Made by a program: the position numbers and the translations under genes. Positions 2,418 through 4,532 of a stretch of 10,143 nt of DNA are shown here, one piece after another. The notes under the pieces were generated by a model. It did no database searches, had not been told where the DNA came from, and worked only from the letters and a program-made list of their open reading frames with translations. The stretch comes from a virus, in UHGV virus genome UHGV-1652557; one strand, 5' to 3'. The stretch's first letter is position 1; each line of letters begins with the position of its first letter.

Positions 2418-2648
2418 TTAAGCTGCGTTCTTTTCGGTGTGTGGAAACAACTTCGGAAGATCCGGGCGAATCTGGTATGCCTTCACAACTCCACCAGTAG
2501 CCGTAACAATGCTGCCGACATGTTCAGGGGATACCTTTGCTTTGTTGTGAAGCCACTTATAGACGGCCTGCTGTGAAACTTCGCAGGCATCGCCTAGTTT
2601 CTTTTGTGAACCAACGATATTGATCGCTGTTTTGATTGCTGGGTTCAT
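2418..2648 (-). CDS. cro: Cro-like HTH transcriptional regulator
   Basis: 76-aa ORF transcribed divergently from the repressor gene. HTH-like segment QKKLGDACEVSQQAVYKWL. GGAGG RBS 5 nt upstream. PR-like promoter immediately upstream. Confidence 0.8.
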   Translation of the reverse strand: MNPAIKTAINIVGSQKKLGDACEVSQQAVYKWLHNKAKVSPEHVGSIVTATGGVVKAYQIRPDLPKLFPHTEKNAA

Positions 2649-2752
2649 AACAACCTCCGTGGTTAATCCGAATCAAGATTAAAACTATGGTTGTTTTTAG
2701 TCAACAACCATTTTCGTTTGATGAAATAAAACCTTGGTTGTACATTTGATCT
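2649..2752. promoter_or_regulatory. Right operator/promoter region (OR with divergent PR and PRM)
   Basis: PR on the minus strand: -35 TTGACT (2704-2699), 17-bp spacer, -10 TAATCT (2681-2676). PRM on the plus strand: -35 TTGATG (2718-2723), 17-bp spacer, -10 TACATT (2741-2746), with no SD before the cI ATG at 2753, suggesting a leaderless transcript as for lambda PRM. A 17-bp operator AAAACTATGGTTGTTTT (2681-2697) fills the PR spacer. Further GTTGTT/AACAAC half-sites at 2701-2717 and 2729-2745. Confidence 0.7.
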
Positions 2753-3442
2753 ATGAAAACAACACTCTCAGAAAGACTTAAAGAAGCCAGATTAGCGCGA
2801 GGCCTTACACAAAAGGCGCTTGGGGATTTGGTCGGGGTTAGCCAGGCTGCTATTCAGAAAATCGAAACAGGGAAAGCTAACCAAACAACTAAAATCGTGG
2901 AGATCGCGAACGCTTTGGGTGTGCGCGCAGAATGGTTATCTTCTGGCGTTGGAAATATGTCAGACAGTACAGTGCAACCAATACAATCAACTGTCAGCCA
3001 TTCCAAATACTTCAAAATTGACGTTCTTGATATAGAAGTCAGTGCCGGGCCAGGTGTAATCAACCGTGAGTTTGTAGAAGTTCTACGCTCGGTTGAGTAC
3101 TCGTTTGACGATGCTCGTCACATGTTCGATGGCAGGAAGGCGGAAAATATCCGCATCATTAACGTGCGAGGTGACAGCATGTCAGGGACGATCGAACCAG
3201 GTGACCTGCTGTTCGTTGATATCACTGTTAAATCTTTCGACGGTGATGGCATCTATGCGTTTCTGTACGACGACACTGCCCATGTAAAACGTCTTCAAAT
3301 GATGAAGGATAAGCTGCTGGTTATCTCTGATAACAAGAGCTACTCGCCGTGGGACCCGATCGAGAAAGACGAGATGAACCGGGTGTTCATATTCGGTAAG
3401 GTCATTGGAAGCATGCCGCAGACGTACAGGAAGCATGGTTAA
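2753..3442 (+). CDS. cI: CI-like prophage repressor (N-terminal HTH, C-terminal LexA-like S24 autopeptidase domain)
   Basis: 229 aa. HTH LTQKALGDLVGVSQAAIQKIETGK. Ala-Gly candidate cleavage site in EVSAGPG. GDSM serine motif and downstream VKRL lysine motif typical of the LexA/CI S24 family. Confidence 0.92.
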   Translation: MKTTLSERLKEARLARGLTQKALGDLVGVSQAAIQKIETGKANQTTKIVEIANALGVRAEWLSSGVGNMSDSTVQPIQSTVSHSKYFKIDVLDIEVSAGPGVINREFVEVLRSVEYSFDDARHMFDGRKAENIRIINVRGDSMSGTIEPGDLLFVDITVKSFDGDGIYAFLYDDTAHVKRLQMMKDKLLVISDNKSYSPWDPIEKDEMNRVFIFGKVIGSMPQTYRKHG

Positions 3443-3671
3443 TTTATCTACGACTTAAGGGAGCGAAGGTTAAGGTTTATACCACTCGGATTAGATATTG
3501 CACTAAATTCTCTATAAGAACGCCAAATCTGTTTGCATATTTCAGTAAATATTCTCGTTGTTAGCTGAGATTTGTTGCTACTGTCAGCAAAATGTCCCCC
3601 TATCTCGTAGCGGTTTTTATTTCGAATCATTATGTTAAGATGTTTCTGATTATAATGAATGGAAACATAAA

Positions 3672-4052
3672 ATGAGAAAAATCCTAATCGCTGCCATGAT
3701 GGCATCTGTATTGGCTGGGTGTGCTTCTTCAGGCAACCAGCAACTCAAAAATGAAACTGAAATTAGTGTCCAGTCTAAACTTCAGGAAGGTAAAACAACC
3801 AAGAATGAGGTTAAATCTTACTTTGGTTCTCCTGATGCTGTTTCATATACTGACAGTGGAAACGAGATCTGGAAGTACGCCTTTGCAAAAGTAAAAGTTA
3901 ATGGCACCACTTTTATTCCATTCTATGGATTATTCCATAATGGAACGAACGGTACGAAAAAAGAACTTACTATTCTTTTTAACGATGACACGATTAAGAA
4001 ATACACAATGTCAGAAACCCAAATAAACTCGAAATCAGGTTGGGCTGACTGA
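3672..4052 (+). CDS. Lipoprotein moron with a BamE/SmpA-OmlA-like domain (candidate lysogenic-conversion or superinfection-exclusion protein)
   Basis: 126 aa. Signal peptide with lipobox LAGC (MRKILIAAMMASVLAGC). Mature part shows a BamE-like pattern (KTTKNEVKSYFGSPDAVSYTDSGNEIWKYAF ... LTILFNDD), from memory. Preceded by an AT-rich 228-bp spacer with a perfect TATAAT at 3651-3656. Followed by a strong terminator. Confidence 0.85.
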   Translation: MRKILIAAMMASVLAGCASSGNQQLKNETEISVQSKLQEGKTTKNEVKSYFGSPDAVSYTDSGNEIWKYAFAKVKVNGTTFIPFYGLFHNGTNGTKKELTILFNDDTIKKYTMSETQINSKSGWAD

Positions 4053-4060
4053 TAATCATA

Positions 4061-4089
4061 CCCGGCAACCGCGCCGGGTTTTCTTTTCC
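4061..4089 (+). terminator. Rho-independent terminator after the lipoprotein gene
   Basis: Stem ACCCGGC (4061-4067) / GCCGGGT (4074-4080), 6-nt loop, then TTTTCTTTT. Confidence 0.75.
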
Positions 4090-4198
4090 TCCCCCTCATA
4101 ACTCATACCGTCCAAAAAACCACCACACCTCACTTCAGTTATCGCTATGCGATGCAAGTCACAAAATAAATCCATCCTAAATACAACCAGTTATATTT

Positions 4199-4260
4199 AA
4201 AACAACCGACAAAACAACTTTTGTTGTTGACGATAAAACAACTATAGTTTTAAATAAATT
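4199..4260 (+). promoter_or_regulatory. Left operator/promoter region (OL/PL)
   Basis: -35 TTGACG (4228-4233), 17-bp spacer, -10 TTAAAT (4251-4256), reading toward kil-gam-bet-exo. Operator AAAACAACTATAGTTTT (4237-4253) fills the spacer and differs at one base from the PR-strand reading of the OR operator. Additional AACAAC-N4-GTTGTT site at 4213-4228 and an AACAAC-containing site at 4199-4218. Confidence 0.7.
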
Positions 4261-4532
4261 CATCGCAACGACACAACGATACGGTAACCACCTGTTTCAC
4301 CGTTGCGATGACCGCTTAGATCCGCAGTTTGAATTTCAGCAGGCTTCGGGGAGTGCGAGGGGTGAAGCGGACGCGTGAACGTCGGTGTGACCAGCTGAAA
4401 TCAACTCAACACTTCATACCTCAGTCGCTTCAACGAGGCGACTTAGTTATGACAACCGGCGGCCATCCACCGCCTGAATACGCGCAGAAGTCTCTATATG
4501 TTCAGCAGCCCAGCTTACGGGCAGGAGTTTTT

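Follow-up and report, generated by a model that had tools for sequence, protein, structure and literature searches.

In phage lambda, cI and cro are divergent. Within the right operator (OR), OR1 overlaps the spacer and the -10 box of the early promoter PR. OR2 overlaps the PR -35 box, abuts the -35 box of PRM, the promoter of cI, and is centred near -42, and OR3 is located in the PRM spacer. The cI mRNA of lambda lacks a leader, the interval between cI and the second early promoter, PL, contains cargo genes, and CI carries a self-cleaving S24 domain. We analyzed a stretch of 10,143 nucleotides from the virus genome UHGV-1652557 (the window), in which a similar 17-mer was found at each of two early promoters. 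A first-pass annotation of the window had claimed that matched operators at PR and PL defined an immunity specificity, presumably common to its CI-like and Cro-like proteins. This claim was backed by comparison with related phages, the binding itself being predicted. The two 17-mers very probably correspond to OR1 and OL1, promoter-proximal operators in a lambdoid switch in which CI and Cro would bind five 14-bp sites.

The annotated genome of phage 434 has six 14-bp operators, all of the form ACAA-N6-TTGT except for one mismatch in OR3. In CP-933P, the divergent promoters were bound by both regulators in electrophoretic mobility shift assays and footprinting (PMC8630535). The repeats there were 18-bp palindromes with the consensus GTTTAGTAA, and four repeats at equal spacing were reported (PMC8630535). 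The window showed the features of a lambdoid switch, namely divergent cI and cro, a gap of roughly 100 bp with three sites, the same site type at PL, and a repressor with helix-turn-helix and S24 domains. It was identified as the immunity region of a lambdoid coliphage. A stretch of ~2.1 kb around the operators was 99.7% identical to Escherichia phage PhiR26_1 by nucleotide comparison. The K-12 e14 (ymfK/ymfT) immunity region was ruled out as its identity, with no nucleotide similarity.

Operator-like sites at the early promoters

The 17-mer AAAACAACCATAGTTTT was found at 2681-2697 on the minus strand, exactly where the PR copy had been placed. The PL copy, AAAACAACTATAGTTTT, was found on the plus strand with the one mismatch that had been described. 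However, its coordinates were 4235-4251 and not 4237-4253, which was a difference of two positions. The OR1 and OL1 17-mers thus agreed at 16 of 17 bases, and two matches with at most three mismatches were observed compared to 0.01 in shuffled sequences. Both copies were within a promoter-like arrangement, TTGAC(T/G)-17-TAnnnT, that could be read directly. This was consistent with the claim that they occupied the -35/-10 spacers of both early promoters. In addition, ACAACNNNNGTTKT with at most one mismatch gave 11 strand-matches compared to 1.75 expected, every one of which was either between cro and cI or a short distance upstream of kil. The window contained 17 AACAAC hexamers compared to 7.1 expected, and 8 of the 17 fell in the roughly 200 bp that OR and OL make up.

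The repeats described as AACAAC/GTTGTT half-sites of the 17-mer were real. However, the conserved unit was the 14-bp pseudo-palindrome ACAAC-N4-GTT(G/T)T, and the outer A and three extra A's were not conserved in relatives. The half-site was 7 bp, A-C/A-A-A-C-Y-W, without a spacer. Among 40 pooled half-sites, the first position was always A (40), followed by C (28) or A (12), A (36), A (40), C (37), C (16) or T (20), and A (29) or T (9).

A weight matrix was made from the sites of three other phages only, and the sites of the window were left out against circularity. When about 10,000 positions were scanned, the top five matches were OL1, OR1, OR3, OL2, and OR2, with scores from 21.1 down to 12.6 bits. 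The best score in shuffled sequences averaged 10.1 bits. The motif did not recur at similar density outside the control regions. Another match inside cI (2885-2898, 11.6 bits) was attributed to chance, since relatives did not conserve it.

The sites are given 5'-3' in the orientation of transcription from PR or PL. OR1, ACAACCATAGTTTT (2681-2694, minus strand, 20.9 bits), filled the PR spacer, and its last base was the first base of the PR -10 box TAATCT (2676-2681, minus strand). OR2, ACGAAAATGGTTGT (2704-2717, minus strand, 12.6 bits), had one consensus arm and one degenerate arm. It touched the PR -35 box TTGACT (2699-2704, minus strand) on one side and the PRM -35 box on the other side, and its centre was 42.5 bp upstream of the cI ATG. 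OR3, ACAACCAAGGTTTT (2728-2741, minus strand, 19.0 bits), was in the PRM spacer and overlapped the first base of the PRM -10 box. The boxes of PR were read from the sequence. For PRM, the predicted -35 box was TTGATG (2718-2723, plus strand), which directly adjoined OR2 and was placed by its position 17 bp upstream of TACATT. The latter was the predicted -10 box (2741-2746, plus strand), which ended 6 nt ahead of the cI ATG. No Shine-Dalgarno sequence was found between the PRM -10 box and the cI ATG. This absence and the distance of 6 nt implied that the cI mRNA is probably leaderless. A leaderless repressor mRNA was shown for paaR2 of CP-933P (PMC8630535).

The inner arms of OR2 and OR1, which face each other, made up an inverted repeat of 9 bp without mismatches that flanked the PR -35 box (2687-2711), ATGGTTGTT...AACAACCAT. 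It was flagged as a terminator on both strands, and this was rejected because the repeat was a by-product of two facing half-sites.

In the case of PL, OL1, ACAACTATAGTTTT (4238-4251, plus strand), was located in the spacer and had the best score in the window, 21.1 bits. OL2, ACAACTTTTGTTGT (4214-4227, plus strand, 18.3 bits), had two consensus arms, and its last base was the first base of the PL -35 box TTGACG (4227-4232, plus strand). This was the same relation as that of the PR -35 box to OR2. The PL -10 box was either TTAAAT (4250-4255, 17-bp spacer) or TAAATA (4251-4256, 18-bp spacer) on the plus strand, and both PL boxes were read from the sequence. OL1 and OL2 were 24 bp apart, as in relatives.

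Two further related sites had been described at each promoter, in a lambda-like tripartite arrangement. This was correct for OR, where OR2 and OR3 accompanied OR1. However, one further full site, OL2, was found at PL, and OL comprised two sites in this phage, as it did in the three closest relatives that were examined. The OL3 candidates at 4183-4196 and 4202-4215 were rejected, as each had one good arm, a score of less than 2.6 bits, and substitutions in close relatives. The AACAAC copies at 4183-4213 formed no full site and varied among near-identical phages. OL was counted as bipartite because several substitutions hit 4183-4213, where a third OL site would lie.

Conservation of the sites in related phages

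Among close relatives, all 15 of the 15 variable positions of both control regions were outside the sites and promoter hexamers, and OL2 was free of substitutions. PhiR34_1, PhiR47_2, and PhiR5_1 had the same cro and cI N-terminus and kept all sites, with differing DNA between cI and PL. PhiR30_1 shared the C-terminal half of cI and the flanking genes. Its cro and cI N-terminus were different, and it lacked the sites.

Phages of Klebsiella, Providencia, Salmonella, and Erwinia had cro/cI pairs with CI N-termini that were 54-74% identical in a protein search. Their intergenic DNA was diverged, and three A(C)AAC-N4-GTT(G/T)T sites were found at the same positions, 23-24 bp apart. The whole-locus site scan covered the Klebsiella, Providencia, and Salmonella phages, which showed two sites 24 bp apart at the PL-equivalent place. 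Both arms of OL2 were perfect in all four ACAAC-group phages checked. The ACGAA-N4-GTTGT form of OR2 was also present in the Klebsiella, Providencia, and Erwinia relatives.

The promoter elements were conserved as well. At the position of the PR -10 box, relatives had TATTCT, TATTAT, TATATT, or TATAAT. A TTGA-type hexamer (TTGACT, TTGATT, or TTGAGT) was at the PR -35 position in 3 of 4 aligned ACAAC-group relatives, and Salmonella UPF_BP1 had TTTGC there. In an 8-phage alignment, the TTT/TTG start of the PRM -35 box was invariant, and all eight phages had the TAnnTT pattern of the PRM -10 box, ending 6 nt ahead of the cI ATG. The HK639 record has a putative pL annotated at the place equivalent to PL.

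The same alignment was informative about the length of the operator. The agreement of OR1 and OL1 at 16 of 17 bases and the 9-bp inverted repeat of OR1/OR2 would also fit a longer element of 17-18 bp with AACAAC/GTTGTT half-sites, like the 17-bp sites of lambda. However, the invariant columns were positions 1, 3, 4, 5 and 5', 4', 3', 1' of OR3 and OR1, and they stopped at the 14-mer. The base outside ACAAC was A or T and was not conserved, as in the TACAAC of OR3 and of the Klebsiella OR1. In addition, the closest structural homologue, 434 repressor, binds 14 bp. A longer operator was improbable on these grounds.

Covariation of operator base 2 with both recognition helices

cro (2418-2648, minus strand) was an open reading frame for a helix-turn-helix protein of 76 aa, annotated as Cro in PhiR26_1, and its recognition helix was S-Q-Q-A-V-Y-K-W. 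cI (2753-3442, plus strand), which is annotated as cI, encoded 229 aa with Pfam HTH_3 and Peptidase_S24 domains. The N-terminus matched HTH_3 with 49.2 bits and was a 434-like helix-turn-helix domain with the recognition helix S-Q-A-A-I-Q-K. The C-terminus matched Peptidase_S24 with 67.3 bits. It was of the self-cleaving type, and GDSM and VKR motifs were present in the translation.

HK639 and two Shiga toxin 1 (Stx1) phages had ATAAC-N4-GTTAT at the same positions, which in HK639 coincided with the annotated putative pR and pL. The arms switched in concert at all sites of this ATAAC group. In the ACAAC operator group, the cI helix was SQAAIQK and the Cro helix was SQQAVYK or SQAAVQK. In the ATAAC operator group, they were SQPAIQK and SQPAVHK. 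PhiR30_1 and BTP1, which had other operators, showed AQPTIWR for cI and AQPTVWR for Cro.

This relation was examined in 80 genomic loci coding Cro relatives, one per species, and the region upstream of cro was searched with base 2 free. The count included 49 loci, phage loci among them, in each of which position 2 of the Cro helix was Gln, Ala, or Pro and two or more sites were present. Operator base 2 was C in 31 of 32 loci with Gln or Ala at this position. With Pro, it was T in 16 of 17 loci. The residue at cI helix position 2 matched that of Cro across loci, and the pattern reached Sphingomonas and Pseudomonas. A shared operator for CI and Cro was judged probable because the sites held their position in diverged phages, covaried with both helices, and were absent from PhiR30_1.

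We compared the Cro helix with the "evolutionary code" of Cro proteins by Hall and Cordes, in which Gln H1 pairs with A +2, Ala H3 with A +5, and Lys H6 with G -6 (PMC6649833). All three published pairings held when S(H0)-Q-Q-A-V-Y-K-W was set against the half-site n-A-C-A-A-C in a helix/half-site register chosen by us. In that register, the half-site has A at both +2 and +5, and at +6 it has C, with G opposite. These were the invariant bases. The three published pairs do not include the link of helix position 2 to base 2. This link, common to CI and Cro, would add a fourth pair to the Cro code.

Another variation was observed in four loci of Xenorhabdus and Serratia (L050-L053), which had Arg in place of Lys at helix position 6 (Cro QPAV[F/Y/H]RW). 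Their sites upstream of cro had one ATACC arm and one ATAAC arm, such as ATACCTTTAGTTAT and ATAACTTATGGTAT. This hints at another residue-base pairing.

The covariation also bore on which protein binds the repeats. A gene for a YdaT-family CII activator adjoins cro, and the repeats could be bound by such a regulator, by the O initiator, or by a host protein, with CI and Cro recognizing something else. However, the sites followed cro and cI and not cII, and the Klebsiella and Salmonella relatives had another CII type and kept the ACAAC sites. The sites were on core elements of PR, PL, and PRM and not at a position like that of PRE, the CII-dependent promoter of lambda. Since base 2 covaried with the recognition helices of Cro and CI in addition, binding by another regulator was very unlikely. 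Shared promoter ancestry or spacer composition without protein binding was the least credible origin of the likeness between the 17-mers, both of which lie in A/T-rich 17-bp spacers of similar promoters with three flanking A's that hold no conserved information, because the arms were fixed across diverged phages while the central 4 bp and the flanks changed, equivalent sites (OR2, OR3, and OL2) occurred outside the PR and PL spacers, and the arms switched together at all ATAAC-group sites.

Several points weigh against binding of CI and Cro to the five sites. One arm of OR2 was degenerate, and its score was only moderate (12.6 bits). A generic sigma-70 promoter scan of the window called none of PR, PL, and PRM. 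PR and PL were missed because no more than 3-4 of the 6 positions matched in their -10 boxes, and the promoter assignment therefore rests on position and conservation in relatives. Exceptions to the covariation were found in L094, which had Ala with T, and in L078, which was mixed. The 49 loci are kin by descent, so their counts overstate the independent events, and the motif search held 8 of 14 positions fixed with base 2 alone free to vary. In addition, no papers that give any of six operator strings of this group were found in open-access text. CI and Cro nevertheless remained the very probable ligands of the five sites.

Comparison with known immunity systems

The closest solved relative of the CI N-terminal domain was 434 repressor (E value 4.5e-9, about 38% identity over 64 residues by hand count). 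The first-pass annotation had described the recognition sequence as different from known types. This needed to be qualified, since both systems have 14-bp sites whose outer bases are ACAA...TTGT or close to it, and the site spacing is 22-24 bp. OL2 fitted ACAA-N6-TTGT exactly, and the other four sites had one mismatch each, with TTTT for TTGT in OR1, OR3, and OL1 and ACGA in OR2. Gln at helix position 1 is also common to both repressors.

However, the specificity was not that of imm434. Of the 40 half-sites in this group, 37 had C at base 5, compared to 0 of 12 arms of 434. The imm434 helix Q-Q-S-I-E-Q (434 residues 28-33) was not matched, and the aligned residues here were Q-A-A-I-Q-K. Helix positions 2, 3, 5, and 6 were A, A, Q, and K here, whereas they are Q, S, E, and Q in 434. 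The Cro of this phage is a member of the YdaS/Cro family. In 434, by contrast, Cro and the repressor domain are paralogues, and it was the cI query, not the Cro query, that 434 Cro matched. The layout was also different. In 434, OR2 is in the PR spacer and OR1 is over the start site, whereas OR1 was in the spacer and OR2 abutted the -35 box here. OL3 is present in 434 (OL1-3), and none was found here. We classed the immunity as not imm434 but a sibling of it in site format.

The layout was like that of lambda, in that OR1 occupied the PR spacer, OR2 adjoined the -35 boxes of PR and PRM, and OR3 was in the PRM spacer. However, the operators of lambda are 17 bp, TATCACCGCCAGTGGTA-like, and unrelated in sequence, and lambda has three OL sites compared to two here. 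The fold of lambda Cro is mixed alpha+beta, and the CII of lambda is not YdaT-like.

HK639 and the Stx1 phages (PA28, SH2026Stx1) were similar in protein families, site length, number and spacing of OR sites, and half-site positions 1, 3, 4, and 5. They differed in base 2, which is T there (ATAAC-N4-GTTAT), and in helix position 2, which is Pro in both CI and Cro. Three OL sites are present in HK639, compared to two here. In addition, the operator-like site over the cro ribosome-binding site described below was absent from HK639 and the Stx1 phages.

In the case of CP-933P (PMC8630535), a YdaS-family Cro analogue, a YdaT-family CII analogue, and a PL/OL analogue were found in both systems, and the repressor mRNA, which is leaderless there, is probably so here too. 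The repressor there is PaaR2, whereas it is an S24 CI here, and the operator sequences differ. Neither a PaaR2/RacR-type repressor nor GTTTAGTAA-type repeats were matched by this phage.

No relevant literature was found on PhiR26_1, related phage names, and GevT, and no matching sequences were found in the literature on the H-19B and 933W operators. We read the five sites as an ordinary lambdoid operator set in a switch of predicted standard mechanism, for which no prior description of the operators was found in open-access text.

Genes of the region and the cargo slot

The PhiR26_1 record annotates Cro, cI, cII, O, P, Kil, Gam, Bet, which agreed with the open reading frames of the window. On the minus strand, P (95-796) and O (793-1812) were assigned from this annotation and the open reading frames, and cII (1809-2348, 179 aa) is annotated as such. 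Its product matched the YdaT family (PF06254) with 104.5 bits (cutoff 21) and was not a lambda-type CII. Cro matched Pfam YdaS_toxin (PF15943) with 61.5 bits (cutoff 30), and its closest solved structure was Xfaso 1 Cro, 3bd1. cro was assigned as the lytic repressor gene of the YdaS/Cro family. This succession, with a Cro analogue of the YdaS family and then a CII analogue of the YdaT family, was the arrangement of the YdaS/YdaT-type immunity regions of Rac and CP-933P. Relatives with ACAAC operators had lambda-type or P22-type CII in place of the YdaT type. The CII module was therefore swapped independently of cro and cI.

On the plus strand, an open reading frame at 3672-4052 encoded a lipoprotein of 126 aa that was weakly BamE-like in Pfam (21.8 bits, under the cutoff of 23.2). 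It was followed by a terminator-like hairpin and T-run (4060-4079, plus strand), detected by a terminator scan, which ends the cI-lipoprotein transcript ahead of PL. kil, gam, bet, and exo were located past the lipoprotein gene on the same strand, as assigned from the PhiR26_1 annotation and the open reading frames.

The region between cI and OL (3443-4213) was a cargo slot equivalent to that of lambda rexAB. The slot contained the BamE-like lipoprotein gene here, no annotated gene in PhiR34_1, the GevT/GevA toxin-antitoxin pair in PhiR47_2, HipA/HipD (a HipA-like pair) in PhiR5_1, and RexA/RexB in the Klebsiella relative.

About ten heteroimmune phages, including PhiR30_1, 4A7, Lambda_4C10, D2, 1W, and 3W, gave matches that started at 2990-2991 (cI codon ~80, the hinge) and ran through the C-terminal domain of cI. 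The start of the nucleotide matches therefore indicated a mosaic joint within the cI linker. cro, OR, and the cI N-terminal domain appear to move as a single specificity cassette, apart from the S24 domain.

No N-like open reading frame was found between PL and the annotated kil (4256-4362). In HK639, whose cro and cI are related, a putL-like antiterminator RNA is annotated at the equivalent of 4256-4362. For an HK639-like put antiterminator RNA in the PL leader (4262-4420), BLAST, fold stability, and Rfam gave no support. BLAST against the HK639 put/pL region gave 8-11-nt matches only, such as TGCGAGGGG and TTCGGGGAG. The fold of the PL leader was no more stable than that of shuffled sequences (z = 0.21), and Rfam gave 0 matches at the gathering threshold for the whole window.

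A possible fourth site over the cro ribosome-binding site

An uncertain, weak operator-like site, ACCACGGAGGTTGT, was located at 2650-2663 on the minus strand. It had one mismatch to the pattern and overlapped the cro Shine-Dalgarno sequence. It spanned about +6 to +19 of the transcript from PR and was some three helical turns past OR1. Its matrix score of 8.7 bits was at noise level. The site was free of substitutions among close relatives. Equivalents at -15 to -17 from the cro ATG were found in about 19 of 32 ACAAC-group loci from many genera, and some of them were perfect, such as ACAACGGAGGTTTT. No locus with the SQPAVHKW Cro helix had the site, and these loci belong to the ATAAC-operator group. 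From its sequence and distribution, 2650-2663 may be a weak fourth operator.

It is rather doubtful that the switch is wired unlike that of lambda in two conserved ways, by a two-site OL and by a fourth site over the cro ribosome-binding site. If OL has only two sites, the OL3-OR3 contact, by which looped CI shuts off PRM in lambda, would be unavailable. If the fourth site is bound, CI or Cro would also act downstream of the PR start.

Proposed switch and its meaning

In the proposed switch, dimers of the S24-type CI and dimers of the YdaS-family Cro would bind the same 14-bp pseudo-palindromes, three in OR and two in OL. CI on OR1 and OR2 would occlude PR, whose spacer is filled by OR1 and whose -35 box is in contact with OR2. 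CI on OL1 and OL2 would occlude PL with the geometry seen at PR. On OR2, which abuts the PRM -35 box at -42.5, CI would activate the leaderless cI transcript, and OR3 in the PRM spacer would be the site for shut-off of PRM by Cro or excess CI. The S24 domain would give RecA-dependent induction. In this model, binding, occupancy order, activation, and cooperativity are inferred from the sites and their positions.

Both helices have Gln, Ala, and Lys at positions 1, 3, and 6, respectively, which would read the invariant A1, A4, and C5. Helix position 2, which is Ala in CI and Gln in Cro, would pair with C at base 2. Relatives with Pro at position 2 use ATAAC...GTTAT and would hence be heteroimmune.

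The region 2418-2960 (cro, OR, and cI N-terminus) was found at an identity of at least 95% in 1524 of 5426 complete E. coli genomes (28%). Up to four copies of the cro-OR-cI module were present per genome. In some complete genomes, 2-4 places held the module, which implied co-resident homoimmune prophages or remnants that share one repressor pool. This may be among the commonest prophage immunity types in E. coli.

This prevalence and the specificity difference of one residue and one base from the HK639-type relatives add interest to the locus. Knowledge of the operator and the specificity residue would make homoimmune and heteroimmune prophages predictable from sequence. The repressor and its operator would be an orthogonal pair that is one base and one residue away from its HK639-type sibling. 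In addition, these loci would provide a natural test of helix-turn-helix recognition rules that are common to two protein families.

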